The notes beneath the pieces are model-generated. The model ran no database searches and had not been told where the DNA came from. It worked only from the letters and a program-made list of their open reading frames with translations. Below, piece by piece: positions 5,386-48,025 of a DNA stretch of 64,000 nt. Both the position numbers and the translations under genes were made by a program. The stretch covers positions 2,018 through 66,017 of the forward strand of contig JBAZJW010000004.1 of NCBI GenBank assembly GCA_041651055.1, given 5' to 3'. Each line of letters begins with the position of its first letter. Within the stretch, counting starts at the first letter, position 1. Source of the DNA: Minisyncoccota bacterium (GTDB lineage Bacteria > Patescibacteriota > Minisyncoccia > Phycocordibacterales > UBA5272).

Positions 5386-5388
5386 TGC

Positions 5389-6903: not shown

Positions 6904-6920
6904 AAGAGAGGAGACTCCAA

Positions 6921-7443: not shown

Positions 7444-7445
7444 TC

Positions 7446-8097: not shown

Positions 8098-8130
8098 AGT
8101 GGGCAACAAAATAAGAGAGGACAAAAAGTC

Positions 8131-8412: not shown

Positions 8413-8419
8413 GGTGAGT

Positions 8420-9042: not shown

Positions 9043-9043
9043 T

Positions 9044-9244
9044 ATGAACGTAAACCGCGTCGTAGAAGTGAGGATGTTTGATTCGTTAGGACAGCCAACC
9101 TTTAACTACGACATAGACGTCAGCACGAGTCTCATGTCTAAAAAATGGCCCAAGTTCGTGTATACTGTGTTGAGAGAATCTCTAACTGTGTGTATGCAAG
9201 GCGGGTGTGTTATTATGAGAGGTGTGTTAACGCCCAGACTATGA
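9044..9244 (+). CDS. hypothetical protein (66 aa)
   Basis: ATG preceded by AACAAGAGAGGAAAGTAG. Confidence 0.4.
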   Translation: MNVNRVVEVRMFDSLGQPTFNYDIDVSTSLMSKKWPKFVYTVLRESLTVCMQGGCVIMRGVLTPRL

Positions 9245-9263
9245 AAAGAGAGGAAACTAAATT

Positions 9264-9416
9264 ATGCAACCCCCAGTGGATCGTTTCATGGAGGTTAATA
9301 TGCACAACTACCGCAGACTCTCATTTGATGATGAGTTTCTGCCTGAGTTGGCACTAGAAACCGAACCTGATGAGTGTTTTATGTTCTTCGCAGAGAAGGA
9401 GGACGAACAAGAATGA
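9264..9416 (+). CDS. small acidic protein (50 aa)
   Basis: ATG preceded by AAAAGAGAGGAAACTAAATT. ATGA overlap with the next gene. Confidence 0.35.
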   Translation: MQPPVDRFMEVNMHNYRRLSFDDEFLPELALETEPDECFMFFAEKEDEQE

Positions 9417-14443: not shown

Positions 14444-15247
14444 ATGCAACTCAACATTCCAGACCCAACGTCAGTGAATGATTACATTCCTGATAGTTAT
14501 AATGCACTAATCTACGGCCCGTCTGGGACAGGTAAGACTGAATTCTGGGCAACCTGGGCTGAGGCAGGTGAGGTGTTGGGACTAGACTCTGATCAGGGTA
14601 TCGTAACAATCAAGTCTACACCTAGAATCTCACCTGAGCTTAAAGCACGTATCAAACACATACCCATTATTGACAAATCCACCGACCCTCACATCAAAGA
14701 ACCCATTGGTTGGGCTATAGTAAAGGCAGTCGTTGAGTCTGTCGCTGCTACGGGTAAGTTTGGTAACTGCCAACCCAAAACTCTCGTCATAGACTCCATG
14801 ACCACAGTCTCAGCTATGACAATGACATGGGTGTTAACTCAAAACCGCAAGTCCCCTGAGACTCAACCATCCTTGCCAGACTGGGGCAAACAAATTGAGG
14901 AACTCAAACGTATTATTAACCTTGGACGTAGCATTAAGGGTGTCAACTTTATATGCGTCGCACATGAGCAATACGAGAAAGACGAGTTATCTGGACGTGT
15001 GTGGTGCTTGCCACTTGTCACTGGTAAGTTTGCCCAACAAATAGGTGGATACTTCGACGAGGTTTATCATGCTAAAGTCGAGCAAACTGGTGACAAGCAT
15101 GTGTATAAACTGGACACAAAAGCGACGGGACTTATTACTGCTAAGTCGCGGTTAGACTTACCCACACCAATCGCAACTCATTACAACAGTCTCAAAGGCA
15201 CGTTGGAAAAGTTGCAAGTGAAAGGAGGTGTCACAACAACAAAATGA
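14444..15247 (+). CDS. AAA_24/Sak4-like RecA-family ATPase
   Basis: Walker A ALIYGPSGTGKTEF. Walker B-like TLVIDS. FICVAHE block. Confidence 0.55.
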   Translation: MQLNIPDPTSVNDYIPDSYNALIYGPSGTGKTEFWATWAEAGEVLGLDSDQGIVTIKSTPRISPELKARIKHIPIIDKSTDPHIKEPIGWAIVKAVVESVAATGKFGNCQPKTLVIDSMTTVSAMTMTWVLTQNRKSPETQPSLPDWGKQIEELKRIINLGRSIKGVNFICVAHEQYEKDELSGRVWCLPLVTGKFAQQIGGYFDEVYHAKVEQTGDKHVYKLDTKATGLITAKSRLDLPTPIATHYNSLKGTLEKLQVKGGVTTTK

Positions 15248-15292
15248 CAATTACCCTTATTATTAACCGTTAACCAAATGGAGGAGCTTAGT

Positions 15293-15733
15293 ATGCCAAC
15301 GATTAACCTTGGAGTAGATTACGAAGACGTGAAATCTCTTGACGAATGGATCGTCGTGCCCGGTGGGACATATTCATTTGTCGTTCGCGGCATCGACGAG
15401 AAAAAATCCAAAACCGGACGGCCGATGTTGAACTGGCGAATTGAAGTCACCGACCCCGTGTCACAGCGCCCTGTGAGTGTGTTCTACAACACTGTCCTGC
15501 CGTGGATGGACAACGGCGAACTCAGCGTTAAGGGTTGCGGGATGCTTGTGTCTATCGCAAAGGCAGTAGGCTTGCCCTGGACTGGCAAAGACCTCAACAC
15601 TGAGGACTACATCGGACGTGCCGGTAGCGTCGTGCTCAAAGTTAGTAAAGCTCAGAAAGACGACGGGACTGGTAAATACGTCGACGATCCTGATGGTAAG
15701 GTCCGTAACGAAGTTGAGAAGTTTGTCTACTAA
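15293..15733 (+). CDS. hypothetical protein, possibly ssDNA-binding partner of the ATPase
   Basis: AATGGAGGAG RBS. Position downstream of a Sak4-like gene. No clear motif. Confidence 0.4.
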   Translation: MPTINLGVDYEDVKSLDEWIVVPGGTYSFVVRGIDEKKSKTGRPMLNWRIEVTDPVSQRPVSVFYNTVLPWMDNGELSVKGCGMLVSIAKAVGLPWTGKDLNTEDYIGRAGSVVLKVSKAQKDDGTGKYVDDPDGKVRNEVEKFVY

Positions 15734-15803
15734 CCATTCCCACATCTATTAACCTTTTTCCAAGCATGACATTAGTTGTGCTAACTCTCTAGGAGGTTCT
15801 AAT

Positions 15804-16076
15804 ATGAAGACCGAACAAGTAGAAATCAAGTCCAAAGGCGAATCGTTGGGAACGTTTGACTACGCATACCCTGAGACGTTGGACGAGGGTATCAGTGTTG
15901 ACACAGCGGACTCAGTGTTTAAGCTGTACGCCATGCAGCGCAAGATTCGTTTCATGGACGCCAAACGCAGAGAGCTGACTGGTGGTGGTCTCCCGAAGGC
16001 TCTCACTGAGAAACTTCGCTCCTTGGATAAGGGCAAGTTGGCTCAGATTGCCGAGTTGCTGGGGATCGAACTGTAG
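15804..16076 (+). CDS. hypothetical protein (90 aa)
   Basis: AGGAGG RBS. Confidence 0.45.
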   Translation: MKTEQVEIKSKGESLGTFDYAYPETLDEGISVDTADSVFKLYAMQRKIRFMDAKRRELTGGGLPKALTEKLRSLDKGKLAQIAELLGIEL

Positions 16077-16366: not shown

Positions 16367-16606
16367 ATGGATGACAATAGACCATTCCCAATTCAAGGTG
16401 GAGTTTTTAGACAGCCTGACGGGGAAGTTCGGAGGCCCGTCGAGCGTTATTTACCGTGTACTATTCCGTGGTGGTTAGCGGAGGAAGCGTATAAATTGTA
16501 TGTCAAGGAAGGCGGAAGAGGCCAAACGCTGGAGAGATTAGCGGAACGTGGCGGTTTTGGCCGTGAAGAACTTATATACTTAATTCGTGGACGGTGGGGT
16601 GAGTGA
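16367..16606 (+). CDS. small protein with C-terminal HTH-like segment (island gene)
   Basis: G-rich RBS AAAGGAGGGGGAAAG. QTLERLAERGGFGREELIYLI resembles an HTH. Confidence 0.45.
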   Translation: MDDNRPFPIQGGVFRQPDGEVRRPVERYLPCTIPWWLAEEAYKLYVKEGGRGQTLERLAERGGFGREELIYLIRGRWGE

Positions 16607-16637
16607 CCACGCCCCAGGCGGGCGAAAGGGGGAAGGG

Positions 16638-17099
16638 ATGAACATAGAATTTGAAGTTTTGACAGATACGCTTTTACATATTGGAGAGGTTCAAGAGAAT
16701 TTGGAAATCTTTATCGGAGAACTACGGCAGCGTGGTCTTGCACATGACAGAACGAAGCTGCAAGAACTAGAATTTGACGCTTTCGTTTCAACCCGCCCGA
16801 AGTTCAAGAAAGCGAACTACGGAAGTCCTGAGTATCAAGAATGTGTGGATGCTATCAAGCCAGCGATTGACCATCATTACCAGCTTAACAGGCACCACAC
16901 GGCTTTTCATCAAGAAGGTATCAACGAAATGAACCTCATTGACATTCTCGAAATGGTGGCTGATTGGAGAGCCGCAGCGAGAAGAAGTCCAACTCAGACA
17001 TTTGAACAGTCCTTAGATTATGCGTTTAATAAGTACAAGATAGACGAACAGCTAAAGGGGATTATACTGCATACTCTCAAGGACTTGAATTGGGTGTAG
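16638..17099 (+). CDS. hypothetical His-rich protein (153 aa, island gene)
   Basis: GGGGGAAGGG RBS before ATG 16638. HHYQLNRHHTAFH suggests a metal-binding patch. Confidence 0.45.
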   Translation: MNIEFEVLTDTLLHIGEVQENLEIFIGELRQRGLAHDRTKLQELEFDAFVSTRPKFKKANYGSPEYQECVDAIKPAIDHHYQLNRHHTAFHQEGINEMNLIDILEMVADWRAAARRSPTQTFEQSLDYAFNKYKIDEQLKGIILHTLKDLNWV

Positions 17100-17110
17100 G
17101 AGGTCCAGCC

Positions 17111-17461
17111 ATGAACGATGTGAACAGGGAAGTGGCAGAGAAGGTTATGGGGTGGGAAGTGTTGGACATAGACTTGCCGCCTGGTGAAAAACGAATGTGG
17201 GCCTCACACGAAGTCGATTCCATTGGCTATAAATATTTCAAGCCACAAATAGCCGTGAAGGACTTCGACCCCATGCACCGGATTGAGCACGCGTGGATGG
17301 TGGTGGAGAAGTTTGATGGTTGTCTGCATTTGAGGCAGCACAATAAAAATGGAAAATGGGAAGCGTTCTTTTGTGACGCTGGCCCAGGGCACGAAGCAGA
17401 GGGAGACACCGCACAAGAAGCGATATGCAAAGCCGCACTCGCGGCAAAGGAGGAAGCATGA
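17111..17461 (+). CDS. hypothetical protein (116 aa, island gene)
   Basis: GTAGGAGG RBS. AEKVMGWE motif. C-terminal KAALAAKEEA is repeated in a downstream ORF. Confidence 0.45.
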   Translation: MNDVNREVAEKVMGWEVLDIDLPPGEKRMWASHEVDSIGYKYFKPQIAVKDFDPMHRIEHAWMVVEKFDGCLHLRQHNKNGKWEAFFCDAGPGHEAEGDTAQEAICKAALAAKEEA

Positions 17462-19028: not shown

Positions 19029-19751
19029 ATGATACCTACTATGATGAATGACCTAACCAATCCCCCACTTGACAATGTTGCAGTCTACCTAAGTGGTGGT
19101 ATAGACTCGTCCGTGGTGCTTTATCACGTGACTAAAAAATGCAAAAACGTTCGCACGTATACGGCAGTTTTTGGTGTATCTAATGACGAGTCTGCCAAAG
19201 CTCAACGCGTGGCTAACTATTTTGGCACAACACACACTGAGGTATTTATATTCAAGTCTGATATACTAGACTCTCTCCCATATGTAATGCGTCTATTCGA
19301 CAGACCTCGATACAACATCTGGCCGTTTTTTCTGGCTAGACGTGCCTTCTATGATGAGGTTAAAACAGCCTACATAGGTGAGGGGTCAGATGAGATATTT
19401 GGTTATCCCGATCGTGGTTACCTCGAAGGCTGGGCCGGGCAGTTGATTTATGTACGTCCAACCTATGATATAGTCAACTCCCACTTCGGCATCACTCTCA
19501 AAGCCCCGTTCACTGAGTTACACCACAAGCTCATAGCAGACTACGGTTCCCAGTCCGCACCGTTAGCATACTTCGATCCACCCAACAAATCCTACCTTCG
19601 TTCAGCATATAAACGTCTCTTGCCAGACTGGATACTCAACACTCCCACAACTGCACCAGCATTTACTAACTACACCGAACTTGGGATCACTAAACATGAA
19701 TTCCAAATCGCAGCTACACGTGCATGGTTGGGGGTGCATGATGTTCACTAA
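19029..19751 (+). CDS. asparagine-synthetase-like (AsnB C-terminal domain only) PP-loop amidotransferase
   Basis: PP-loop VYLSGGIDSSVV. AsnB signature YIGEGSDEIFGYPDR. No glutaminase domain and no QueC-type Cys cluster. Confidence 0.7.
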   Translation: MIPTMMNDLTNPPLDNVAVYLSGGIDSSVVLYHVTKKCKNVRTYTAVFGVSNDESAKAQRVANYFGTTHTEVFIFKSDILDSLPYVMRLFDRPRYNIWPFFLARRAFYDEVKTAYIGEGSDEIFGYPDRGYLEGWAGQLIYVRPTYDIVNSHFGITLKAPFTELHHKLIADYGSQSAPLAYFDPPNKSYLRSAYKRLLPDWILNTPTTAPAFTNYTELGITKHEFQIAATRAWLGVHDVH

Positions 19752-20490
19752 ACTAACCATCGAACTCACCAACATCTGCAACTTATCATGTGATCCTTGT
19801 CCACGTCACCACCTAAAAATGAACTTTGGCTACATGAACGAGCAGCTATTCTATAAGTTGCTAGACCAATGTCCCCCAGGTACCACTATCCTACCGTTCT
19901 GGCGTGGTGAATCGCTCCTACACCCACAGGCTATTGAGCTGCTCTATTACGCAGTTTCCCGTAAATTAGATGTTGTGTTAGCAACCAACGGTTCCCGAAT
20001 GGTTGAACTACACCAACAAATCGGCCTCATAAAAAAGCTAAAAGCGATCAACGTGAGCTTACATAACATCGACTCATATTCAGCCTACCTATGGCTCCAA
20101 GAACTCAAACACGCTACAAACTCACCAATCGACATACAACTATCCTATGTCGAAGGTGAACACACCGACGTTCCAGAGGAGTTATTTAACCACTTAAACC
20201 TTCGCCGTTATAAACAACACTCCTTCAACGGTGTATGGGGATGCACCGATGCTGAACCAGTATTATACCAAGACTGGTGTCAGCGTTTAGACACTGACCT
20301 AGTAATCACGTGGGATGGTAAAGTCTCACGTTGCTGCTATGTGTGGCAACCAATAGAAGGTTTAGATGCTAACACACAAACTCTGGAATCCATACAATAT
20401 CATCCAAATTATAGTCGTATCATTACTAACTATCCCGACCGCATTTGCTCTGCGTGTGACCAATGGCGAGGCGGGGGTAGAACTCTCTAA
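19738..20490 (+). CDS. radical SAM enzyme
   Basis: CxxxCxxC triad in IELTNICNLSCDPCPRHH. Additional C-terminal Cys (RCCYVW...CSACDQW). Confidence 0.7.
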   Translation: MMFTKLTIELTNICNLSCDPCPRHHLKMNFGYMNEQLFYKLLDQCPPGTTILPFWRGESLLHPQAIELLYYAVSRKLDVVLATNGSRMVELHQQIGLIKKLKAINVSLHNIDSYSAYLWLQELKHATNSPIDIQLSYVEGEHTDVPEELFNHLNLRRYKQHSFNGVWGCTDAEPVLYQDWCQRLDTDLVITWDGKVSRCCYVWQPIEGLDANTQTLESIQYHPNYSRIITNYPDRICSACDQWRGGGRTL

Positions 20491-20505
20491 CCCAGGAGTC
20501 AAACT

Positions 20506-21321
20506 ATGGACATTTTAATCCTTGGTGGCGATGGCATGTTGGGGCATCAGTTACTTAAATCCCTAAGTCATAAACACTACGTAAAAGCAACCATTCACGG
20601 GCCGGAGATGTTTGGTAGAATCAACACATTTCCATATGTTGACGTCACAAACACAGACCACTTAACAGAAATACTCTCTGAATTTCACCCTAAAGTTGTT
20701 ATCAATGCAGTGGGTTTCGTTAAACAACGGTTTCATGACTACGTCAAAAACATCGAAGTAAACGCTTTGTTTCCACACAAACTAAACAACCTCTGTAAGT
20801 CTATTCATGCGCGACTTATACACATCAGCACGGACTGTGTGTTTAGTGGTAACAATAGCAGCTACACAGAACAACATACACCTGATCCTGTTGACATCTA
20901 TGGTATGACAAAACTACTTGGTGAAATTCACTCATCTTATGGTTGTCTTACTCTACGCACGTCATTCATAGGACGTGAACTTAAGAATAAGTTAGGTTTA
21001 CTTGAGTGGTTTCTAGGTCAAACCGGGACGAGTGTAAACGGCTACATAAACGCTGTTTTCAGTGGCCTAACCACCATCGAATTTGGGCGTGTTATAGAGA
21101 TGATACTAGACTCCCACGAACTACATGGTCTACTTAACGTATCTGGTTATCCCATTAATAAGTATGATCTCTTACTTAAACTCCGTGCTAAATTCAACCT
21201 AAACATAGACATCAAACCATGTATGGAACCAGTGATTAATAGGTCGTTAGATTCATCCAAGTTTATGAAACGCTTCAACTACCAGCCCCCAACCTGGGAT
21301 TCGTTGATTGAGGAACTATGA
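20506..21321 (+). CDS. NAD(P)-dependent sugar reductase/epimerase, RmlD-like
   Basis: ILILGGDGMLG Rossmann motif. YGMTK (YxxxK) catalytic pair. About 270 aa, as in dTDP-4-dehydrorhamnose reductases. Confidence 0.6.
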   Translation: MDILILGGDGMLGHQLLKSLSHKHYVKATIHGPEMFGRINTFPYVDVTNTDHLTEILSEFHPKVVINAVGFVKQRFHDYVKNIEVNALFPHKLNNLCKSIHARLIHISTDCVFSGNNSSYTEQHTPDPVDIYGMTKLLGEIHSSYGCLTLRTSFIGRELKNKLGLLEWFLGQTGTSVNGYINAVFSGLTTIEFGRVIEMILDSHELHGLLNVSGYPINKYDLLLKLRAKFNLNIDIKPCMEPVINRSLDSSKFMKRFNYQPPTWDSLIEEL

Positions 21322-22268
21322 AAATCCTTCACTACCATCACAACGGCGTGGGTGTGGTGCTTAGCAACGAAATGAACACCAGACCTAACATCACATCAAA
21401 GGTGTTCACCACCGCCAGACATCCTTTTGGGTTTAAGGCTGACTACGTGCTACCACCCAATATACCAATTCTAGGTTCACAAAACCTTTCATATTGGATA
21501 TTGTTTAGTACACTACACAAACGTTATGATATATTACATAGTCATGATGGAATTCCCCTACCACAACGTGTATTACGCAAATGGTCTGGCCGGGTTGTGC
21601 AGCACTACCACAATCCATTATTTACTGACTTCTACCCACACACTCCCATACCATCGTTCGTATCAACGCCAGCCATGACATTAACTATCCCAAATTCTGT
21701 GTGGATGCCACTACCTATAGACCCACTTAAATTCCATCCAGGTGTTAGACTTTATAACCCATACAATCCAGTTATAGGATTCTCATACAATATAAGCGCA
21801 GACAAGAATAAACTAAAATACATTCCACTTAATGAACTTATGCAGTTCTCACGGGACTGTAAACAAGTCATCATGAAAGGTTTATCTGATTCTATTCATC
21901 ATACCAAAATGCCAGCCTACTACCAATCAATAGACATTTATGTGGATCGCTTGGGACTGGACTCCTATGGTTGGCAAGCTATCGAAGCGGCGGCGTGTGG
22001 GTGCGTGGTAGTTACTCAAGCCAAGAACTCTCCAGAAGATTGTCCATTTAGTTATGCAACTCCAGAGACACTTTCTAACGTGCTAGAATCCATCATAACT
22101 CTACCAGTTAAGATGTTCATAAACATGAAACATCAATCCATTGAATACGCCAATAAATATCACAACGTCTCAACACTCGTTGACAGATACCTACAATATT
22201 ACTCTAACCTAGGAGACCTAAATGCTTTTAAAAACTGCATGGAGCACACTAGCATTACTGCTATATAA
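21318..22268 (+). CDS. putative glycosyltransferase
   Basis: C-terminal QAIEAAACGCVVV resembles the GT-B E...G.PVV sugar-donor motif. ATGA overlap. Confidence 0.45.
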   Translation: MKILHYHHNGVGVVLSNEMNTRPNITSKVFTTARHPFGFKADYVLPPNIPILGSQNLSYWILFSTLHKRYDILHSHDGIPLPQRVLRKWSGRVVQHYHNPLFTDFYPHTPIPSFVSTPAMTLTIPNSVWMPLPIDPLKFHPGVRLYNPYNPVIGFSYNISADKNKLKYIPLNELMQFSRDCKQVIMKGLSDSIHHTKMPAYYQSIDIYVDRLGLDSYGWQAIEAAACGCVVVTQAKNSPEDCPFSYATPETLSNVLESIITLPVKMFINMKHQSIEYANKYHNVSTLVDRYLQYYSNLGDLNAFKNCMEHTSITAI

Positions 22269-23250
22269 GCGTCAGAGTCAATGGGCCGTGCCAACATCAT
22301 TAGGTGTATGTCTGACAGATAGATGCAACATCAAATGCACCTACTGTATGCGAGAAACGTTTAAACCACCAAGCGGTGAGTTAGACCTAGACGATATTCA
22401 AGTTATGTTACGTAATGCACCTACTGTTACAGGCGTCTGTATTATGGGTTTGTGTGAACCTTATTGTAATCCTAATACGAGTCGTATCATCAAATGGTTA
22501 AAAGATGAAGGTCACTACAGTATATCATTCACTACAAATTGTACCATCCCATTCACACCCGTTAAATTAGATGCACTTCGACGCGTTGATGACATGGCCG
22601 TGAGTATAGACTCAGCTGATCCAGTGGTGTTTCGTGAATTAAGAGGTACTAGCTTAGACACAGTCATGACCCACCTAACCGATATTATTCGTTATAAACG
22701 TGTGCTCAAGTTAACCGCCACTGACTCACCACCCATTCACATCAATGCTGTAATAACTCAACGTAACTGGTCTGGCATACCAGACCTAATAAAAATGTTC
22801 GAACCCTATGCTAACGACCTAACCTACCTAATGCTAGACCCATGCACACGACCTGATTACTCAAAGGCAGACGTATTTACATCAACTGAGAAACCGTCTA
22901 ACTTCGACGACTTTAAACACCTTGCCAAACTCTCACCACTTAAAGTCATAGGTTTCGACTACATGTTCCAGCCATCTAGTGAGTGGTCTACCTGCTCAAT
23001 GTCGTGGTTAGGCCCATTCGTACAACCCAACGGTGACGTTTATCCTTGTTATGGTTATAGAACTGTCGTTGGTAACATCTATCGTGAATCCCTACTCCAC
23101 GCCTGGAACTCCCCACTCATACGAGAGTTTCGACGTTCCTTACAAACTCCCTATCCACCGTTAGTTCAATGTCGTTTCTGTAACTTCGCCCGTCCTAAAT
23201 GGCAAGTAGGTGGTGCATACAATAAACTCCACGAGGATCAAGACAAATGA
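22222..23250 (+). CDS. radical SAM enzyme with SPASM-like C-terminal Cys cluster
   Basis: CLTDRCNIKCTYCMRE triad. C-terminal CYGYR...QCRFCNF is SPASM-like. Start uncertain (22222 or a downstream ATG). Confidence 0.65.
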   Translation: MLLKTAWSTLALLLYKRQSQWAVPTSLGVCLTDRCNIKCTYCMRETFKPPSGELDLDDIQVMLRNAPTVTGVCIMGLCEPYCNPNTSRIIKWLKDEGHYSISFTTNCTIPFTPVKLDALRRVDDMAVSIDSADPVVFRELRGTSLDTVMTHLTDIIRYKRVLKLTATDSPPIHINAVITQRNWSGIPDLIKMFEPYANDLTYLMLDPCTRPDYSKADVFTSTEKPSNFDDFKHLAKLSPLKVIGFDYMFQPSSEWSTCSMSWLGPFVQPNGDVYPCYGYRTVVGNIYRESLLHAWNSPLIREFRRSLQTPYPPLVQCRFCNFARPKWQVGGAYNKLHEDQDK

Positions 23251-23948
23251 CAGACTTTGATTATCAGTGGAAATACTTATCCAACTCACCCTATTTAGAA
23301 CACAACTCAGATAGGGTGAAAGAACTCCTAGACCTAACAATGCTACCGCCTGAGTGGTTTAATGGTAAGTATTGCCTAGACGTTGGCTGTGGTTCGGGAC
23401 GCTACACATATGCTATGCAACAACTAGGTGCAAAGGTTATATCAATAGACAACAGCATCTATGCACTCCAGCTAACAAGTCAAATAAACAAACACGTCTT
23501 TCTACATGACATCACCAAAGCACCGTTTTTTATACGTGGTTGTGCATTAACATTCTGCTATGGTGTGATCCACCACACACCCAACCCTAGAAAAGCCTTC
23601 TCAAACCTAGCAAAGGGTGTACCTAGTGGAGGTTATTTATTTGTTATGGTATACCGTGACTCTCCCGTTCAAAAACGGTACGAAGGTTTCAGAAAACTAT
23701 TTAAATCCCTACCTGCTGTAATGAGGTTACCTTTTGTTTATATGATTACTCTAGTGTTCCGTTATAATTACATCCCACCATTTTATCATCCAGTTCATAC
23801 AGTTCATGGTTGGTGGGACGCATTAAGTCCGACATACAACTTCACATTCACCGAGGACGAAATAGTAACGTGGTTTAGAGAAGAAGGGTTTAGTAACTTA
23901 TACACTTCTACCCTACCTAACATATGTATGACAGGACTAAAACTATGA
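23247..23948 (+). CDS. class I SAM-dependent methyltransferase
   Basis: Motif I LDVGCGSGRYTYAM. Confidence 0.65.
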   Translation: MTDFDYQWKYLSNSPYLEHNSDRVKELLDLTMLPPEWFNGKYCLDVGCGSGRYTYAMQQLGAKVISIDNSIYALQLTSQINKHVFLHDITKAPFFIRGCALTFCYGVIHHTPNPRKAFSNLAKGVPSGGYLFVMVYRDSPVQKRYEGFRKLFKSLPAVMRLPFVYMITLVFRYNYIPPFYHPVHTVHGWWDALSPTYNFTFTEDEIVTWFREEGFSNLYTSTLPNICMTGLKL

Positions 23949-24589
23949 AAATCCTCTTTGTCCCACACGATGCAGGTAACTTTGCTCCGTTGGTAGCTAA
24001 GTGTCTACGTGACCAAGGTTACGATGCTAGGTGTATAATTTTTTCACAATCGTATCTAAGTTATAAGGTTCAACCACCAGACAAAGTAATCGGCGGTCGT
24101 GGTGTGTGGTCACTATTAATATTAGAACTAAAACGCTGGCTCGTGTTGTATGAGGCACTTAGTTATGATGTGATTGTTTTTACCTTTGGTAGTACCATCC
24201 TCCCGAACCCGGCGTTTATAGGTTGGGGATTGAGTAGTAAAATTTCACTAAAAATGCGTATGTTTTATTCATGTATAGTCTATCCATTCAGTTATCTAAT
24301 GTTAGATGTTTGGTTGTTACATAAACTACACAAACGCATAGGTGTATTGTTCCAGGGCGGCGACGCGCGTAGAGGTGACATACTACGTACGCGTGGGTAT
24401 CCAGACATAGACGAAGAACCCAAGGGTTATTATATTAACTTCATTGACAGATTAAAGTCCCGGCGTGCCAAACTTTGGGACAAATATGCTGATGTTATTT
24501 GGTACCACAACCCCGATCTCTGGTGGGGACTACCTAAACGCTCAACCTTTATGCCGTACCCAATAGAGACTAACCATGAAACGTTCTGA
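23945..24589 (+). CDS. GT-B glycosyltransferase, N-terminal (acceptor) half-like
   Basis: MKILFVPHDAGNFAPLVAKCLRDQGYDARCI resembles a GT4 N-terminus. ATGA overlap with the methyltransferase. Confidence 0.4.
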   Translation: MKILFVPHDAGNFAPLVAKCLRDQGYDARCIIFSQSYLSYKVQPPDKVIGGRGVWSLLILELKRWLVLYEALSYDVIVFTFGSTILPNPAFIGWGLSSKISLKMRMFYSCIVYPFSYLMLDVWLLHKLHKRIGVLFQGGDARRGDILRTRGYPDIDEEPKGYYINFIDRLKSRRAKLWDKYADVIWYHNPDLWWGLPKRSTFMPYPIETNHETF

Positions 24590-24932
24590 TATACGTAGAC
24601 TCTACGTCCATAACCGCATGATCCTAATGAAAGGATTTAATGAGGTTGGTATAGTTATAAGTATCTGGAACACGTCTATGCTACTGTTGCTTACGTTGTC
24701 TAACTTATTTGGACGGTCTATTAAAGTTGTGTGGATGGTGGTTATAGCTATACCTACTATTGTAGTTGTCTTTTATTTAGTAGGTCTCCTACTCTACAAA
24801 CGCGGCTTCATGAACGCGGAGTCAGAATGGATAGCAAGTGTAAGTCCTCCACATATGGACATAATCAAACGTCTAGACCACATAGAAAAGGAGCTACAGG
24901 ATGTCAAGACTAACATTCGGACACATAGTTAA
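24576..24932 (+). CDS. small membrane protein (2 TM), between the GT halves
   Basis: Hydrophobic segments IVISIWNTSMLLLLTL and VVWMVVIAIPTIVVVFYLVGLLLY. Confidence 0.4.
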   Translation: MKRSDIRRLYVHNRMILMKGFNEVGIVISIWNTSMLLLLTLSNLFGRSIKVVWMVVIAIPTIVVVFYLVGLLLYKRGFMNAESEWIASVSPPHMDIIKRLDHIEKELQDVKTNIRTHS

Positions 24933-25494
24933 CCACCGTGAGCCAAAAGGTAGTCGTTTCGTATTAGACGCTGTTCATAAAGCACGTATGTCAGGTGCAG
25001 ACTTCGGGTTTATATTTGCTGAACGTCTCTCATATCAGGAGGCTATGAAGTTATACCCCCAAATTGATGTGTTGCTTGAGCAGTTTGTTATAGGCTGGTA
25101 TGGTCTACAAGCATGTGAGTTTGCACTCATGGGTAAGCCGGTTGTAGTCTATCTACGTGAGGCTGACGGCCCGCCGCTGGTACCTAGCCAACTCTGGCAG
25201 GACATACCATTTATCAACGCCACTCCAGATCAAATCCCTGGTGTGATTATAAACATCACCAAGATGTCAACTCTTGCTCTAACTGAATTAGGAAAACGCG
25301 GCATAGCCTTCGTTAAGAAATATCATTCAAACACTGTAGTAACCCAACAAGTCATGAATGAGTTATTAACCCTACCAAATCACTCGGAATTAAACGAATC
25401 TCACGGAAAACTTTCCCCTAAGGAGGTGCATTGTGATGAAAAAGGTAATCCTATTAGCGTGGCTGCTTCAAATAGTGATCTACCCAAACTATAA
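24901..25494 (+). CDS. GT-B glycosyltransferase, C-terminal (donor-binding) half-like
   Basis: GHIVNHREPKGSRFVLDAV and LEQFVIGWYGLQACEFALMGKPVVV resemble the GT4 C-domain E-x7-E region. Confidence 0.5.
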   Translation: MSRLTFGHIVNHREPKGSRFVLDAVHKARMSGADFGFIFAERLSYQEAMKLYPQIDVLLEQFVIGWYGLQACEFALMGKPVVVYLREADGPPLVPSQLWQDIPFINATPDQIPGVIINITKMSTLALTELGKRGIAFVKKYHSNTVVTQQVMNELLTLPNHSELNESHGKLSPKEVHCDEKGNPISVAASNSDLPKL

Positions 25495-25684
25495 AGGCAT
25501 CCAAGGTGAGGTTGACTACTCTCGTCCAGCCATCGTGATTGACAAGGACGAAGTCTACCAAACCATACCAGGTACAACAGAACGTGACTACACTAAACCT
25601 AGCTACACTATAGAAGACAAACGTCCAGATACACGTAGACATCATCAACGTTACATAATCGACATGGAGGACCCGTTGGAATGA
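25436..25684 (+). CDS. small secreted/membrane protein (82 aa)
   Basis: AAGGAGGTG RBS. N-terminus KKVILLAWLLQIVIY is hydrophobic. Confidence 0.35.
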   Translation: MKKVILLAWLLQIVIYPNYKGIQGEVDYSRPAIVIDKDEVYQTIPGTTERDYTKPSYTIEDKRPDTRRHHQRYIIDMEDPLE

Positions 25685-27169: not shown

Positions 27170-27353
27170 CACCCTACACGACCGCTTGATGGCCCTCACC
27201 ACACATCATGGTGAGTACACCCACTTGATTCGTAAAGCCATTCGCGAGTTCGTTACCAATGAGGAGGCCCGCCGTGGAATTGACAACACAACTAGACTTA
27301 CAATCCAAGTGCAGCAAACTAAAACTAGTCCTTCCAAAATCCCTAACCCATAA
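27135..27353 (+). CDS. ribbon-helix-helix (CopG/Arc-like) DNA-binding protein
   Basis: MKFIRAQITDTLHDRLMALTTHHGEYTHLIRKAIREFV shows a beta-alpha-alpha pattern. Its 3' end overlaps the polymerase start. Confidence 0.45.
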   Translation: MTMKFIRAQITDTLHDRLMALTTHHGEYTHLIRKAIREFVTNEEARRGIDNTTRLTIQVQQTKTSPSKIPNP

Positions 27354-29613
27354 ACGCCTAGCTATTGTTGGTGAAGCACTAGGCGCAGACGAGGAGGAAC
27401 AAGGTGATTACTTCGTTGGCAAGGCTGGGTTCTTACTTGATAAACTCCTTCGTGAGTGTGGTCTCATCCGTGATGCTATTCATATTACTAATGTTCTTAA
27501 AATACGTCCTCCGGATAACAAAGTACCCAGACTAGGTGAGTTAGGTCTAACCATAGATGACTTCGTCCCATATCTAAAGGAAGAACTCTCACTTGTCAAA
27601 CCTAACATTATCCTTGCATTAGGTGCCCCGGCCATGCAGGTTCTAACTGGCAAAGACGGTATAACCAAATGGCGCGGCTCGACGGTTCCTTGCACTTTAA
27701 TCCCAGGGAACATACCAGTTGTGATCACTCTTCACCCGTCGTATATACAGCGTGGTCAGTGGCACCTATATCCATATGTTAGGCATGACTTTGAAACCTT
27801 TGCAGATATGGGATTTGGGTTGCATAAACAAACCCAACCATTTGAAATGTTGATTGAGCCTACACTAACTCAAATTATGGACTACTTAAACGAAATATAC
27901 GAGACGTCCACTGAAACGTCCATAGACATAGAGACCGTTAACAAGACCCACATCACTTGTGTGGGGTTTACTAAGAATGAGAACTCGGCAATCTGCATAC
28001 CTTTTCGTTCGAAGGGTCTACGTAACCACTGGGCCGAGCATGAGCAACTACTTATACTTGAAGCGATGCGTCGTGTCTATCAGAAACCGGGCCTTGTCAA
28101 GATTGGTCAGAACTTCCTAGACTACGACGCCCATTACCTCTATCCGTTGTTAGGCTTCCCACGTGAACCCCTATTCGACACCCTCTATGCACATCAGTTA
28201 ATTCACGCCGACGCGCGTCATGACCTAGGGTTCATCATAAGTGTCTACACCGACATGCCCTACCATAAAGACGACGCCAAAGACTGGGAATCTAAAAAAC
28301 TCCCACACGATCAAGCCTTGTGGGAATACAACTGTCGTGATACAATAGGCACACACCGTGCTGCACTTAAACTAAGGAGCGACCTACATGAATTGGGACT
28401 CTACGGTTTTCTCACCGGCTACATCATGCCATTCAAACGCGCCCTATTTGAGATGGAGTGGAGAGGAATATACGTTGATCAAGAACTGCGTGGGAGAATG
28501 GCAAAAGACATTGAAGATAACCTTTTACCAGACGCATTGTGGTGCATCGAAGAACTCACAGGTAAAGCTATTAATCCAAACTCATCCAAGCAGGTTGGGG
28601 AGTACCTCAACGACGTCCTCCACATACCCGTTCCAAGGACAGACAAAGGCAACTACACAGTCGATGAGGATAAGTTAGAAGAACTCTTCGCGAGGTTTCC
28701 AAAGCATCGTCGTATCATGGAGATGTTTATATGCACCCGTAAGATGAAGGCTAAGGACTTGGGTACCTATCTCACTGCACCCTTATCAAGTGACGGTCGC
28801 CTACGCACTAGCTTTGGCATAGCTAAAACCGGTAGACTCACCTCTGGTACTAACCACCGTGGCGAGGGCACGAACCTCCAGAACCAGCCCAAGCGATTGC
28901 GCGTGGTTTATAAAGCCGACCCCGGTCGTAAGTTACTATGTCCTGACCTCGTAGGTGCTGAAGCCTTCGTAACTGTCTGGCAATCCGGGGCAAAGAAACT
29001 CAAAGCTGAGATGTTGAAAGGTAAAAAAATCCATGCTATCGTCGCCAACTGGATCACCGGCAAACCCATTAGCGAACTCCCACCCGAAACCTACCGCAAC
29101 ATAAAAGCCTGTGTGCATGGTAGCAACTATAAAATGGGCGTGAACAAATTCGCCAAGACCATAGGCTCAACCGTTGAAGAAGCCAAGCGTGTGCGTGAAC
29201 AATACTTTGCTGTGTTTCCTGAGTTGGCTGGGTATCATGCATGGGTAGAGAATGAAGTTGTCACCAAACGTAAACTCATCACGCCTTATGGACGGGTACG
29301 TATATTCACAGGCGACTTGAAAAAAGACGATATGTATTCTGCTTATTCACAAATTCCACAATCCACTATTGCGGACACAATAAATACAGGGATACTCGGT
29401 CTTTGGTTGGTGAAGCCAGACGATATATACTTACTGCTACAAGTACATGATGAAGTTGTAATAGAGCTACTTCCAGACAGAATTGAGTGGTTCAAACTGT
29501 ACATAGAAGCACATCTATCCAAACTACGCGAACTATGGATTGGAGATGATTATTTAGTTATTCCAGTGGACATAGGTAAGGCTAAGGACAGGTGGTACGG
29601 AGGTGAAAAGTAA
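27259..29613 (+). CDS. family A DNA polymerase with 3'-5' exonuclease domain and N-terminal family-4 UDG-like domain
   Basis: UDG-like GEALGADEEEQGDYFVGKAGFLLDKLL plus HPSY. Exo I IDIETV. Pol motif A LLCPDLVGAE, motif B RNIKACVHGSNYKMG, motif C LLQVHDEVV. Confidence 0.85.
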   Translation: MRRPAVELTTQLDLQSKCSKLKLVLPKSLTHKRLAIVGEALGADEEEQGDYFVGKAGFLLDKLLRECGLIRDAIHITNVLKIRPPDNKVPRLGELGLTIDDFVPYLKEELSLVKPNIILALGAPAMQVLTGKDGITKWRGSTVPCTLIPGNIPVVITLHPSYIQRGQWHLYPYVRHDFETFADMGFGLHKQTQPFEMLIEPTLTQIMDYLNEIYETSTETSIDIETVNKTHITCVGFTKNENSAICIPFRSKGLRNHWAEHEQLLILEAMRRVYQKPGLVKIGQNFLDYDAHYLYPLLGFPREPLFDTLYAHQLIHADARHDLGFIISVYTDMPYHKDDAKDWESKKLPHDQALWEYNCRDTIGTHRAALKLRSDLHELGLYGFLTGYIMPFKRALFEMEWRGIYVDQELRGRMAKDIEDNLLPDALWCIEELTGKAINPNSSKQVGEYLNDVLHIPVPRTDKGNYTVDEDKLEELFARFPKHRRIMEMFICTRKMKAKDLGTYLTAPLSSDGRLRTSFGIAKTGRLTSGTNHRGEGTNLQNQPKRLRVVYKADPGRKLLCPDLVGAEAFVTVWQSGAKKLKAEMLKGKKIHAIVANWITGKPISELPPETYRNIKACVHGSNYKMGVNKFAKTIGSTVEEAKRVREQYFAVFPELAGYHAWVENEVVTKRKLITPYGRVRIFTGDLKKDDMYSAYSQIPQSTIADTINTGILGLWLVKPDDIYLLLQVHDEVVIELLPDRIEWFKLYIEAHLSKLRELWIGDDYLVIPVDIGKAKDRWYGGEK

Positions 29614-32613: not shown

Positions 32614-32976
32614 ATGACCCTAGAAACCCGGCCCGAAACGCTCATGGGCAAGACTCATAGGATTCGCACAGGATACGGATGGCTATACGTAACCATTAAT
32701 GAACTAGACTCCAAACCCGTAGAAGTCTTTGCCACCATAGGTAAAAGTGGCGCATCCATTATGGCAAAAGCCGAAATCGTTGGACGCTTCGTATCGCTAT
32801 GCCTACGCTACGACATCCCTCTCAAAGAAATAATCGACCAACTCATAGACGTCTCAGGCTCGGAGCAACTCCCTGTAGGCGACACAGTTATCAAATCCAT
32901 ACCTGATGCAGTAGGTAAGTTACTCCATCACTTGTACATAAAAACTCCACCCAAACAACAAGTGGAGTCTCTATGA
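32614..32976 (+). CDS. hypothetical protein resembling the class II RNR C-terminal (NrdJb-like) block, with Cys replaced
   Basis: RTGYGWLYVTINELDSKPVEVFATIGKSGASIMAKAEIVGRFVSLCLRYD, compared with the remembered KTGCG.LYVT..EVF..GK.GGC pattern. Tentative. Confidence 0.35.
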   Translation: MTLETRPETLMGKTHRIRTGYGWLYVTINELDSKPVEVFATIGKSGASIMAKAEIVGRFVSLCLRYDIPLKEIIDQLIDVSGSEQLPVGDTVIKSIPDAVGKLLHHLYIKTPPKQQVESL

Positions 32977-45523: not shown

Positions 45524-46425
45524 TAAATACCCTCCACATCATGACTAACCCTGAAGTCATCGTTCCATAAGGTACCACCGGTTACGTCTCTCACACGTCT
45601 TGGCATAGACGTCGTACCCATGTCCTCTATAATTGCATCACGAAGCAAATTAGCATAGTCCGTTTTGGCGTCACGTGCTAGGCCAATAAACGCAGGGTTT
45701 TGTGTGATAGTAAATACTAACCTATAACAATCCCACAATGCTCCTGCTTCAATTAACTCAGGTCTAAACACCGGCTCGTCGGTGTCTGCACTAAGATCAG
45801 CTACGTACTTCTTATAATGTACTGTTAGCACATAATCCTGATCTGGCACGGGCCATACTTCAAATGTCACCAACCCATCACCTTTGGTCTTACTAGTGAT
45901 CCTATAATGTGTAGGCGGCCCCGTAGACGTCCTCTCAGGATCGAGTGCGTTAAGATAATTCTCACTAACTTCTCCCAACCTACTTTGATATACCAAACTC
46001 ACAATCTCCCCAACATCAGCCACTGTAGGTGTATAATATGTCCTAAATATGCCATAGTTAGTTGACGCTGCCGTTGACCCGCCATATGCAGTTAGCAATA
46101 CAATATTCGTTGCGTCGGTTATTGTTGTGATTTCATATGGTTGGGACTCACTACCAAATCTAATAAAATCCCCAACTGCGAAGTTAGTAAACGTCGTCCC
46201 CGACCCAACCACTGCAGTACTGTCATGCGTCACAGTGACAGTGTCTACAGTCGACGTATTAGCATAATCACCCTCTAGCTTAACAGTCGTTCTATCCTTT
46301 AGAAACTCCCAATCCTCAGCACCTAGAATTTGTTTATACCTGATGTTAATTCGCTGCTTGACTACCGGCATTGACAACATCGGGACGAATTCTTTGAGGT
46401 TGAGTGCCATTAATCTTAGGTTCAT
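45523..46425 (-). CDS. hypothetical head-tail or tail protein (300 aa)
   Basis: Start may be an internal Met (46380 or 46371), which would reduce the overlap with the upstream gene. Confidence 0.45.
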   Translation of the reverse strand: MNLRLMALNLKEFVPMLSMPVVKQRINIRYKQILGAEDWEFLKDRTTVKLEGDYANTSTVDTVTVTHDSTAVVGSGTTFTNFAVGDFIRFGSESQPYEITTITDATNIVLLTAYGGSTAASTNYGIFRTYYTPTVADVGEIVSLVYQSRLGEVSENYLNALDPERTSTGPPTHYRITSKTKGDGLVTFEVWPVPDQDYVLTVHYKKYVADLSADTDEPVFRPELIEAGALWDCYRLVFTITQNPAFIGLARDAKTDYANLLRDAIIEDMGTTSMPRRVRDVTGGTLWNDDFRVSHDVEGI

Positions 46426-48025
46426 TTTTAGGCTCCATTTGACGTTTTACTTGATACCCACGAAGTAGAATCTGTTGTATTTGTCCTAGAAACTCTCTCG
46501 CTTCTTTGTAGCTAGGATTAAACTCTAGGCTTTTTTTAGCGTAGGCTTCGGCTGCCAGTAACCCACCCAATACTAACTGTGCTTTAGCTGCGTTTAACCA
46601 TAATTCCCAGAGTCTAATAGCACCATCATAACGATTAATACCTTCCATTGTGTAGTGCAATGCATGAATTGAGTCATTAGCAACTTGGTACATGCCACCT
46701 AGGTTGACCAATGAAAATCCATCAGTAGGCGAGTGTTTAATCGCTTTGTGGTAGTAGTCTACGCTAGAGGTTTTCTTCGCGCGAATGAAGTAATATTCAG
46801 TTAGTGTCTTATGAATGAGGTCTTTGTAGGTTGATAGTATTACAATAATTAATCCAGCTATTATGTACCATTCGGGTGTATACGTAGCATCACCTCGTAA
46901 GCATGCAAACAACACAAACCAGATCATTACGTTAGTGGGTTCTGTATGTAAGTTGTGCATAAATATACCAGATATTAATGCTGCTATTAGTGCACCTTTT
47001 AAAAGTAAGTCTGCATCTGATAGTAGTGCCATTATGATTAAACTCAAATATGCCACCAAACCAGGTATGCCTACATCACAGGCCATTTGAATGTAGTCAT
47101 TATGACACTTCTGCGGGTAGGGACAAGAGTAGTTACTTGGATCAAGAAACGCGCCGTTGGATTTGTTGTTGAGATCACGCTGTATGTAAGGTATTCTGCA
47201 CTTCAAGCAATCCAACCCAAGCCCGAATCCTGGGGTGAGTTTAATTTGTTCCCAAGCTATTCGCCAGTAGTTGAGTCTCTCCTTAAGTGTACCTTTGCTG
47301 TAGTCACTAATTAAATGCCTCCAGCCTGTTGAGAGTAACATCATTCCAATACCAATGCTCATTATAACAAGCAACGTATACACATCATCTGATTGAGTTG
47401 TTACCAACACAAACAACCCACCCACCACCATGCCTAGGTAACTACCTTTACATTTAGTAATCCAAACTGTATAACCTATTAATGCGCTGACTAGATACCA
47501 CCACCTAGACTCAGCACCCAGTAACAATGACAAAAAGAAACTCACCGCCATGAGGTTCCCAAGCATGTTAGTATTACCAATAAACCCTAGTGGAAATAGA
47601 TACTGAGGTAGTGCGTTGGATAAGTTGCGTAGTGGCTCTCGCTTAAAGACTCCCTGTAAGACAGCATACAAGCAATTAGCCACAATGCCTATCATAACAA
47701 TACCAAGACCAGTTAGATTAATACCATTAAACGCTGTCACTATGAACATAACCATCCCGGTCCAGACGCTTAACTCACTAACCCCAACATAGTGATATGG
47801 AGAAACTAACGTAGCCACGATCCACCACCCTACCATGCCTAACGTTATCCATATCACCATATCAGGTAAATAAATACTGGTACCTTCTACCCACCACTGG
47901 AGGAGGTATGCCACGCCAAGCAAAGGCATAAGTGCGCGTCTCAAGACCTCATAGGGTGCTCTAAATTGAGGCCCACTCATTAAGACGGTTAAAATGGCGA
48001 GTAGTATATAAGGTACCAGTTCCAT
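46346..48025 (-). CDS. Wzy_C-domain (O-antigen ligase / polymerase / O-oligosaccharyltransferase-like) polytopic membrane protein with C-terminal TPR-like repeats
   Basis: About 10-12 hydrophobic helices. Loop motif CHNDYIQMACDVGIPGL matches the Wzy_C H-N-x-Y-L...G-x-x-G signature. C-terminus has TPR-like helices (NPSYKEAREFLGQI). Confidence 0.55.
   Translation of the reverse strand: MELVPYILLAILTVLMSGPQFRAPYEVLRRALMPLLGVAYLLQWWVEGTSIYLPDMVIWITLGMVGWWIVATLVSPYHYVGVSELSVWTGMVMFIVTAFNGINLTGLGIVMIGIVANCLYAVLQGVFKREPLRNLSNALPQYLFPLGFIGNTNMLGNLMAVSFFLSLLLGAESRWWYLVSALIGYTVWITKCKGSYLGMVVGGLFVLVTTQSDDVYTLLVIMSIGIGMMLLSTGWRHLISDYSKGTLKERLNYWRIAWEQIKLTPGFGLGLDCLKCRIPYIQRDLNNKSNGAFLDPSNYSCPYPQKCHNDYIQMACDVGIPGLVAYLSLIIMALLSDADLLLKGALIAALISGIFMHNLHTEPTNVMIWFVLFACLRGDATYTPEWYIIAGLIIVILSTYKDLIHKTLTEYYFIRAKKTSSVDYYHKAIKHSPTDGFSLVNLGGMYQVANDSIHALHYTMEGINRYDGAIRLWELWLNAAKAQLVLGGLLAAEAYAKKSLEFNPSYKEAREFLGQIQQILLRGYQVKRQMEPKNEPKINGTQPQRIRPDVVNAGSQAAN

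Follow-up and report, generated by a model that had tools for sequence, protein, structure and literature searches.

A candidate glycan-tailoring and ligation cassette in the genome of an uncultured, apparently lytic phage

Why would a phage carry nine tightly packed genes that read like a small pathway of sugar chemistry? The question is raised by a gene cluster in a 64,000-nucleotide stretch of contig JBAZJW010000004.1 (assembly GCA_041651055.1), hereafter the window, which encodes a truncated asparagine-synthetase-like enzyme (P1), two radical S-adenosylmethionine (SAM) enzymes (P2 and P5), an RmlD-like reductase (P3), a methyltransferase (P6), a small membrane protein (P8) and glycosyltransferases (P4, P7 and P9). 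Our analysis favors, as probable and well short of certain, a set of phage-borne genes for glycan tailoring and ligation through which a surface glycan of the host is remodeled, together with a WaaL-like protein of the Wzy_C family encoded elsewhere in the same window. What we observed directly is which genes are present, the families and folds to which they belong, how far they are conserved and under purifying selection, and which genes they neighbor.

The window is an almost complete phage genome, encoding a portal protein, large terminase, primase, SU10-like capsid and adaptor proteins, beta-helix tailspike-like proteins, a ParB-N6/N4 DNA methyltransferase and a PolA-type polymerase. Neither an integrase nor a repressor was recognized across the 64 kb, and because no integrase was found the phage looks lytic; a tRNA scan of the window returned zero tRNAs. 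With blastn, the cluster had no match among 50,697 GenBank phage records, and the terminase shares no more than 33% identity with any record, so this phage is remote from all deposited phages.

All nine open reading frames (ORFs) lie on the same strand (Table 1), with neighbors either overlapping or separated by a 15-nt gap, and ATGA overlaps occur at three junctions (P3/P4, P5/P6 and P6/P7). This is the arrangement that an initial annotation, made from the sequence alone, had described; every motif it quoted was found in the translations, and its family assignments were borne out when we combined Pfam and NCBIfam profile scans with alignments, profile-profile comparison (hhalign) and AlphaFold2 models searched with Foldseek. 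P4, P7 and P9 are invisible or almost so to Pfam. Hydropathy profiles show hydrophobic segments in P8 and the Wzy_C protein and none in the cassette enzymes. Residues that are invariant in each family are all retained.

Table 1. Coordinates and assignments of the cassette genes and of the Wzy_C gene in the window.
Feature	Position	Strand	Assignment	Basis
P1	19029..19751	+	240-aa AsnB-type ATP-pyrophosphatase, glutaminase-less	PP-loop SGGIDS, GEGSDEIFG; Pfam
P2	19738..20490	+	250-aa radical SAM enzyme, CX3CX2C plus one auxiliary 4-Cys cluster (twitch/SPASM)	Pfam, NCBIfam, AlphaFold2
P3	20506..21321	+	RmlD-like short-chain NAD(P) ketoreductase, accessory	GGDGMLG, YGMTK; RmlD_sub_bind E 1.1e-26
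P4	21318..22268	+	Compact divergent GT-B glycosyltransferase, accessory	hhalign; weak Glycos_transf_1
P5	22222..23250	+	Radical SAM enzyme, second of two, complete SPASM domain, accessory	Pfam Radical_SAM E 1.5e-12, SPASM E 5e-12
P6	23247..23948	+	Class I SAM methyltransferase, core member	DVGCGSG; Pfam class I families
P7	23945..24589	+	N-terminal Rossmann domain of split GT4-like GT-B glycosyltransferase	Residues 12-223 of 382-aa L002 protein
P8	24576..24932	+	Conserved 118-aa protein, two hydrophobic helices	Homologues and hydropathy
P9	24901..25494	+	C-terminal nucleotide-sugar-binding domain of split GT4-like glycosyltransferase	Residues 235-387 of L002 protein
Wzy_C-TPR	46346..48025	-	Wzy_C (WaaL-like O-antigen-ligase family), polytopic, C-terminal TPR	Pfam Wzy_C E 3.7e-14

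The truncated, asparagine-synthetase-like nature of P1 was confirmed by its Asn_synthase match (PF00733, E 1.6e-26, 94.3 bits against a cut-off of 21), which is partial, covering positions 20-137 of the 354 in the profile; the Pfam scan of P1 found no GATase_6/7 domain, whereas full-length relatives do show one. Its score against TIGR01536 (77.6 bits) is under that model's cut-off of 267.1. The motifs SGGxDS and GEGSDE are invariant in a 26-member alignment, the top PDB sequence matches are CarA, AsnB and beta-lactam synthetase, and P1 is predicted to adenylate a carboxylate and form an amide. The family is small, with about 30 clusters of 233-274 aa among 5.8 billion, beyond which generic AsnB proteins follow. 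When GTDB species representatives were scanned with the P1 alignment, each of the 80 loci obtained proved to be a generic AsnB, aligned over residues 17-126, and none a member of the P1 family; the scan yielded neither a prophage nor a host.

For P2, the SPASM match (25.4 bits) is above its Pfam cut-off of 21.5, while the Radical_SAM match (28.2 bits) is just under its cut-off of 29.5; cysteines 13/17/20 and 180/198/236/239 are invariant in a family of about 34 clusters among the same 5.8 billion. The initial annotation had the family right, yet credited a SPASM-like region to the second radical SAM enzyme only, and P2 too has an auxiliary-cluster domain. Its AlphaFold2 model (pLDDT 88.4) is matched best by BtrN, DesII, SpeY and BlsE, all sugar- or cyclitol-acting radical SAM enzymes, with BtrN (4m7t) at rank 1 (E 4e-10, TM 0.63/0.64, 245 columns, 16% identity). 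P2 is predicted to act on a sugar C-H bond in the manner of a dehydrogenase. The second enzyme, P5, passes both Pfam cut-offs, in line with its original description, and all its NCBIfam matches fall under cut-off. PDB sequence searches with P2 and P5 gave marginal E-values only. No relative of P5 emerged from an IMG/VR scan, in which the sole match was 37 residues long and at chance level, and its similarity to the radical SAM protein of a related phage locus (L013) is confined to the core; P5 is an accessory gene, specific to the window among the loci examined.

The glycosyltransferases required more work. Pfam gave no match to P7 or P9, Glycos_transf_1 included, but the two proteins align to the N- and C-terminal halves of intact homologues of 371-401 aa in other phage contigs, as expected from the split GT-B enzyme first proposed. 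P7 retains the invariant G..GGDAR and NPD motifs, P9 the invariant H, KG, Q, G, A, E and H, and the start of P7 is most likely at 23945 (MKILFVP..., as in the homologues), not at 23924. An AlphaFold model of an intact homologue (pLDDT 88.7) has the GT-B fold, with the GT4 enzymes PglA, MshA, BshA and WaaG nearest. The family comprises about 25 clusters among the 5.8 billion, and distant homologues in cells are found in polysaccharide loci alongside Wzm/Wzt, DegT, epimerases and AsnB. Division falls at the interdomain linker, and split forms occur in the window and in L003, L008, L013 and L014, with intact and split versions coexisting in one family. What lies between the halves varies: nothing in L008 and L014, P8 in the window, a Cys-rich ORF in L003 and a 74-aa ORF in L013. 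Both halves are under purifying selection, with dN/dS of about 0.14 against L008, compared with 0.08 for the neighboring ParB-methyltransferase gene; across phage lineages, synonymous change in the core genes is saturated and dN/dS is low. The possibility that P7 and P9 are pseudogene fragments, raised at the outset as something that would undo the functional reading, is ruled out by the conserved split, the retained invariant residues and the dN/dS of 0.14. P4 reached only 17.9 bits against Glycos_transf_1 (E 2e-3, cut-off 26.4), whereas hhalign matched its residues 1-299 to the P7/P9 family alignment (probability 98.6%, E 8e-16), by which it is evidently a full-length divergent paralogue of that family.

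P8 is no debris of the split and proved to be a conserved two-helix member of the cassette: its homologues stand inside the cassette in L003, L010 and L014 and directly downstream of a Wzy_C gene in L186. We propose that it is a membrane partner of the system. We also considered P8 as an insertion that broke the glycosyltransferase gene, and rejected this since the halves are separate without any insert in L008 and L014 and P8 lies elsewhere in L003, L010 and L014. As a separate observation, L003 contains two paralogous Cys-rich ORFs in its cassette (3649-4257 and 8101-8598; GRKFGRLTVL...W.C.CDCG), one of them exactly between the glycosyltransferase halves, which by eye look like selfish genes of the homing-endonuclease type.

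Pfam confirmed the remaining two assignments, the RmlD-like reductase and the class I methyltransferase. The RmlD_sub_bind match of P3 (94.1 bits, cut-off 27) spans profile positions 1-151 only, and its TIGR01214 score (88.5 bits) is under the cut-off of 224; no RmlA-, RmlB- or RmlC-like ORF was seen among the window ORFs scanned with Pfam, and blastp of P3 against the related loci gave no match. Homologues of P6 are 43-57% identical in L002, L003 and L008 and 28% identical in L014.

Is the gene combination peculiar to this phage? P1, P2, P6, P8 and the glycosyltransferase are found again, with their order shuffled, on uncultured phage contigs numbering about a dozen, among them L002/L176, L003, L010, L013, L014, L177, L097 and L180. 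The core consists of P1, P2, a P6-type methyltransferase, the glycosyltransferase and P8, and around it the accessory genes change. In the window they are the RmlD-like reductase, the second glycosyltransferase and the second radical SAM enzyme; by eye, L003 has a Gfo/Idh/MocA protein and an LbH acetyltransferase, plus two more ORFs, one methyltransferase-like and one sulfotransferase-like; L014 has a sulfotransferase and APS kinase, L010 a WbmS-like protein and LbH, and L015 an epimerase, DegT and acetyltransferases. By eye, L177 adds Gfo/Idh/MocA-, DegT- and LbH-like ORFs, a WbpG-like PP-loop protein, a GT4-like ORF and two AsnB-like ORFs. The accessory genes of the sister cassettes are all sugar enzymes. 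The nucleotide-sugar or glycan reading first given to the cluster is borne out. L008, L013 and L177 belong to the lineage of the window phage (PolA 55-74% identical), and here the region around the ParB-methyltransferase and PolA genes is a hypervariable island: L008 has only a methyltransferase and a split glycosyltransferase there, L177 at least 14 genes. Phages of other lineages have the cassette beside TerS, beside Wzy_C or after a DnaB-like helicase, so its adjacency to the ParB-methyltransferase in the window carries no functional weight.

The claim that such a set is unusual in a phage therefore stands for deposited phages, with the cassette absent from the 50,697 GenBank records, and fails for uncultured ones, where it recurs. 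Against those records tblastn found no match to the glycosyltransferase family and, for P2, one weak match in an unannotated fecal 'Bacteriophage sp.' An IMG/VR scan with the glycosyltransferase alignment recovered only a contig already known, the pattern being too narrow. With 27-35% identity to their relatives in cells, the P1, P2 and glycosyltransferase families stand apart from these, and their members occur on phage-like contigs.

The membrane end of the proposed system rests on the Wzy_C gene. Its Pfam match (PF04932) scores 53.2 bits against a cut-off of 31.7, while no NCBIfam model reached cut-off, so the protein may be a ligase, a polymerase or a protein O-oligosaccharyltransferase; at least seven hydrophobic segments in residues 1-404 are followed by a soluble TPR domain, R250 and H308-N309 are invariant, and in searches with the family profile WaaL (7tpg) was the sole membrane-protein match, accompanied by TPR proteins. 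The link between cassette and Wzy_C gene suspected in the initial annotation found good support in other phages. Wzy_C-TPR homologues of like architecture directly adjoin the cassette in L010 (in the order Wzy_C, P1, P2...) and L014 (...glycosyltransferase, P1, Wzy_C, TPR), and share a contig with it in L002, L011 and the window; the type occurs in about 20 IMG/VR contigs, and tblastn found no match to it in the GenBank phage records. In the closest relative, L186, a P8 homologue directly follows Wzy_C and the pair lies between virion and lysis genes on a contig that also bears, by eye, an integrase-like ORF (14729-15823, minus strand) and a repressor-like ORF; judged by gene order, this is a classic moron position. 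We propose that Wzy_C-TPR handles a lipid-linked product. Directly upstream of the L186 gene there is also a 3094-aa protein (27-9311, plus strand), helicase/methylase-like by eye in its N-terminal part, whose C-terminal end is shared with a truncated ORF upstream of Wzy_C in L002 (8-1459, plus strand).

Relatives of P2 give a second view of the chemistry. Scanning metagenomes and viromes with the P2 alignment, we collected 91 non-redundant loci, many of them cellular as their contigs are 100-430 kb long, and counted neighbors within 8 kb. A DegT aminotransferase was commonest (54 loci, at a median distance of 5 nt), followed by full-length AsnB (51), LbH acetyltransferase (36), a P7/P9-type glycosyltransferase (20), class I methyltransferase (18), formyltransferase (11), PP-loop protein (10), epimerase/dehydratase (10) and GT4 (7). 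By gene content, this is an amino-sugar and polysaccharide context. The radical SAM, AsnB and methyltransferase genes are often consecutive in cellular loci (for example L163 3013-6895, L170 2615-6575 and L100 9971-14863), P6-like methyltransferases coming after the radical SAM-AsnB pair, which suggests that phage P1, P2 and P6 are a trimmed version of a cellular sugar-pathway trio. About 50 further loci, mostly cellular, within L096-L175 have the same run, with DegT usually abutting the radical SAM gene. Our literature searches found no description of this conserved trio, or quartet, of polysaccharide loci.

From these associations a pathway can be drawn, for which we infer every substrate, the order of the steps, the acceptor and the biological pay-off. 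Soluble cytoplasmic enzymes would tailor a sugar supplied by the host, which could be a nucleotide sugar or could be bound to a lipid carrier beforehand. The BtrN-like twitch enzyme P2 would abstract a hydrogen from the sugar, probably oxidizing a hydroxyl to a ketone, which the RmlD-like P3 could reduce again, so that P2 and P3 together might achieve a net epimerization. P1 would adenylate a carboxylate, for instance that of a uronic acid, to form an amide using ammonia or an amine; P6 would methylate, and P5 could contribute an additional radical step. P4 and the two-subunit, GT4-type P7+P9 enzyme would then transfer the sugar or sugars to a membrane-bound acceptor, and Wzy_C-TPR, probably with P8, would polymerize or ligate the product on the outer face of the membrane. 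As a result the infected cell would present a changed surface glycan, and further phage adsorption could be blocked or receptors otherwise masked.

Several observations weigh against this picture. The Wzy_C gene of the window lies 21 kb away on the opposite strand inside the virion gene block, with no evident co-regulation, and its subfamily went undetected on four IMG/VR contigs carrying P1/P2, in a search with a stringent pattern and with three of the contigs seen in partial view. The DegT aminotransferase that is the commonest partner of P2 relatives has no counterpart in the window, and the fold matches, at TM about 0.6 and 11-16% identity, speak to class and not to substrate. We did not find a phage-encoded initiating phosphoglycosyltransferase, flippase or nucleotidyltransferase, so the pathway must rely on host functions. 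Classical seroconversion is a prophage trait, whereas no integrase was found in the window. Finally, the contig is filed in a metagenome-assembled genome (MAG) of Candidatus Paceibacterota, a lineage that would be without lipopolysaccharide (LPS).

The host matters for the acceptor. A protein 100% identical to P1 is recorded on a 66,682-bp contig labeled by NCBI as MAG Candidatus Paceibacterota bacterium, and it appears that a phage genome was binned within the MAG of a bacterium of the Candidate Phyla Radiation (CPR); the phage may have been mis-binned, or else the label hints at the host. Among the 80 genome loci, the closest cellular look-alike of the phage gene mix is L019, from a Patescibacteria group MAG (JBDRJA010000131.1, 1-16000), whose P6-like methyltransferase ranks first in the set and whose P2-like radical SAM enzyme, a radical SAM-SPASM protein, ranks second, and which further encodes a GT1, several methyltransferases, GT2s, a GT4 and a 459-aa AsnB without a glutaminase domain. 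The bin label and the content of L019 together hint weakly at a CPR host. If so, the acceptor would not be LPS: in an LPS-less Patescibacteria/CPR host, lipid A-core would give way to, for example, a surface protein, a pilin or a wall polymer. We also entertain, tentatively and with more doubt than belief, that the core is a self-contained phage-specific glycoconjugation system, made up of Wzy_C-TPR, P8, the mini-AsnB, the BtrN-like twitch radical SAM enzyme, the methyltransferase and the often-split GT4, which would equip the envelope of the infected cell, in the course of a lytic cycle, with an undescribed sugar modification (radical-SAM oxidation, then ATP-dependent amidation), possibly in a CPR host.

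Among other explanations, glycosylation of the virion itself fares best, and we consider it unlikely. Under it the cytoplasmic GT4 enzymes would place a tailored sugar on capsid or tail proteins and Wzy_C would be unrelated. Virion glycosylation in a mycobacteriophage and capsid glycans in giant viruses have been reported, the fold of the split enzyme is common to many viral GT1/GT4 proteins, the glycosyltransferases and tailoring enzymes are soluble, the phage looks lytic, and Wzy_C sits between genes resembling those for major capsid and adaptor proteins. Yet in the window, L008, L013 and L177 the cassette lies in the replication or early modules and not by the capsid genes; a cytoplasmic route needs neither the polytopic WaaL-like protein nor the two-helix protein to which the cassette or its parts are linked in L010, L014 and L186; and the nearest structural match, PglA, acts on a lipid-linked acceptor. 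The initial annotation had left virion and host-surface glycosylation side by side; of the two the host surface is favored, and nothing points specifically to the virion.

It is slightly more improbable that the genes are a metabolic booster or passive moron, that is, recently captured host polysaccharide genes that duplicate or top up the nucleotide-sugar metabolism of the host and yield no phage-specific product. The mix in L019 is similar, with its P2-like radical SAM enzyme, glutaminase-less AsnB, P6-like methyltransferase and glycosyltransferases, and the GC content of P3-P9 is slightly under the genome mean, with per-gene GC and GC3 of the cluster still inside the genome range. Environmental viruses often carry nucleotide-sugar, asparagine-synthase, methyltransferase and glycosyltransferase auxiliary genes (PMC10980836). 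Recent capture sits poorly with the rarity of the P1, P2 and glycosyltransferase families (about 25-34 clusters each) and their distance from cellular relatives, and the AsnB truncation and glycosyltransferase split are conserved derived features; that the core is kept across phage lineages under purifying selection contradicts a passive moron.

Hypermodification of phage DNA, in which glycosyltransferases and tailoring enzymes would decorate bases against restriction together with the adjacent ParB-DNA methyltransferase, is very improbable. The cluster does lie directly upstream of that methyltransferase gene and near PolA, the T4 DNA glucosyltransferases are GT-B enzymes (T4 DNA alpha-glucosyltransferase, AGT, came in at rank 44, E 1e-7, in our fold search), and P1 has a weak QueC-like similarity. 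The last is confined to the PP-loop and far under cut-offs, the methyltransferase adjacency on which this idea had initially been kept open is specific to one lineage, and sister loci tie the cassette to a membrane WaaL-like protein, sulfotransferase and APS kinase, DegT and LbH. Moreover, the Pfam-scanned window ORFs (at least 90 aa, including all of at least 200 aa) contained no dCMP/dUMP hydroxymethylase, thymidylate-synthase homologue, TET/JBP, DpdA/TGT, QueD/E or FolE. Equally remote is maturation of a ribosomally synthesized and post-translationally modified peptide (RiPP), with the SPASM enzymes, AsnB-like enzyme and methyltransferase modifying a small peptide or P8: SPASM enzymes and AsnB homologues are typical RiPP maturases (the lasso cyclase is AsnB-like), SuiB, SkfB and EpeE are among the P2 fold matches, P8 is a small conserved ORF and many peptide-maturase models appear among the weak NCBIfam matches of the cluster, but those matches are all far under cut-off, the best fold matches (BtrN, DesII) act on sugars, sugar enzymes flank P2 relatives in most of the 91 loci, P8 is a membrane protein without a recognizable leader/core layout, and neither a protease nor a RiPP recognition element was found, all of which disfavors the peptide chemistry at first considered for these enzymes.

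How far, then, does the proposed surface-glycan cassette resemble systems already known? Pseudomonas phage D3 carries a serotype-conversion module (Iap, Wzy-beta and Oac) with a Wzy_C-family protein. As in phage seroconversion modules, the window phage and its relatives encode a polytopic Wzy_C-family protein and small membrane proteins, L186 has Wzy_C as a moron by lysis genes with an integrase-like ORF, and an altered host surface glycan is the expected outcome. Unlike them, Wzy_C in the window has a C-terminal TPR and no tblastn match among the GenBank phage records, and it is coupled to multi-enzyme sugar tailoring and GT4 enzymes instead of an acetyltransferase or polymerase inhibitor; D3-type modules belong to temperate phages and are expressed from the prophage, whereas this phage shows no integrase, and P8 has no demonstrated similarity to Iap. 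Further Wzy_C-family examples of seroconversion are the O-antigen-ligase moron of VarioGold (PMC9658991) and the Wzy polymerases of Acinetobacter prophages (PMC13228068).

The resemblance to cellular amino-sugar and uronic-acid O-antigen pathways lies in the proposed logic of sugar-carbon oxidation, optional transamination or acylation, ATP-dependent amide formation, methylation and GT4 transfer. Such pathways use WbpB/WbpE/WbpD/WbpG-type enzymes, and WbpS-like AsnB homologues form uronamides; BtrN works with a DegT-family aminotransferase in butirosin biosynthesis. Similarly, P2 relatives are flanked by DegT, LbH and AsnB, and sister phage islands carry Gfo/Idh/MocA, DegT, LbH and a WbpG-like PP-loop protein. 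The cassette differs in that its oxidizing enzyme is a radical SAM twitch protein and not an NAD-dependent dehydrogenase, its AsnB homologue has lost the glutaminase domain and about one-third of the synthetase domain, and the window has no aminotransferase or acyltransferase. Split GT-B enzymes are known in eukaryotic Alg13/Alg14 and in bacterial two-gene GT-Bs; the cassette enzyme is likewise cut exactly at the linker of two Rossmann-like domains with both halves conserved, but its family mixes intact and split forms and the intervening genes vary.

Glycan and nucleotide-sugar auxiliary metabolic genes have been surveyed in environmental phages and giant viruses (PMC10980836; PMC9614988), and they include glycosyltransferases, methyltransferases, asparagine-synthase-like and nucleotide-sugar enzymes, also in viruses co-binned with Patescibacteria. 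Those are individual genes, whereas the window has a multi-gene core that is found across lineages and tied to its own ligase-like membrane protein. No paper describing the combination was found in our literature searches. What is new is a defined multi-gene core common to several phage lineages, the pairing of a mini-AsnB with a twitch radical SAM enzyme, a conserved split GT4, a TPR-bearing WaaL-like partner with P8, and their occurrence in an apparently lytic phage. Rewriting of the host sugar coat by phage genes decides whether a cell is visible to other phages, predators and antibodies, and the known examples are prophage modules of one to three genes. If our reading is correct, the cassette is far larger than these, a modular set of genes exchanged among phage lineages and located in a hypervariable island; solving the phage version of the mini-AsnB and twitch enzyme would also annotate the cellular radical SAM-AsnB-methyltransferase loci. 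Should the host be a CPR bacterium, the cassette would provide one of the few ways to study how phages and hosts of that group interact at the cell surface.

A few minor features of the window and its relatives deserve mention. A defense-system role was considered and dropped, as PADLOC returned superfamily-level matches only (the pVip radical SAM core and the QueC PP-loop). A promoter and terminator scan gave counts at or under shuffle expectation. Overlapping the 3′ end of P9 is an 83-aa ORF (25433-25684, plus strand) with a hydrophobic, signal-peptide-like N-terminus and no Pfam match, which runs 4 nt into the ParB-methyltransferase gene at its start codon; no counterpart was called between P9 and that gene in L008. 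Just upstream of its methyltransferase and split-glycosyltransferase module, L008 carries members of the anti-defense families Acb2_Tad1_hairpin and Tad3 by Pfam (5801-6010 and 7604-8239), while at the equivalent place in the window (about 17.4-19.0 kb) there are unannotated small ORFs only. The replication genes are flanked by small conserved-domain proteins (32614-32976 and 16587-17461, both plus strand), with TSCPD (E 7.6e-16), DUF5662 (E 3e-30) and phage ABA-sandwich (E 5.5e-18) domains. The PolA ORF of the window (27259-29613, plus strand) has about 200 extra N-terminal residues, and in its L008 and L013 homologues the N-terminal part is recorded as UDG (uracil-DNA glycosylase family) fused to DNA_pol_A_exo1 and DNA_pol_A.

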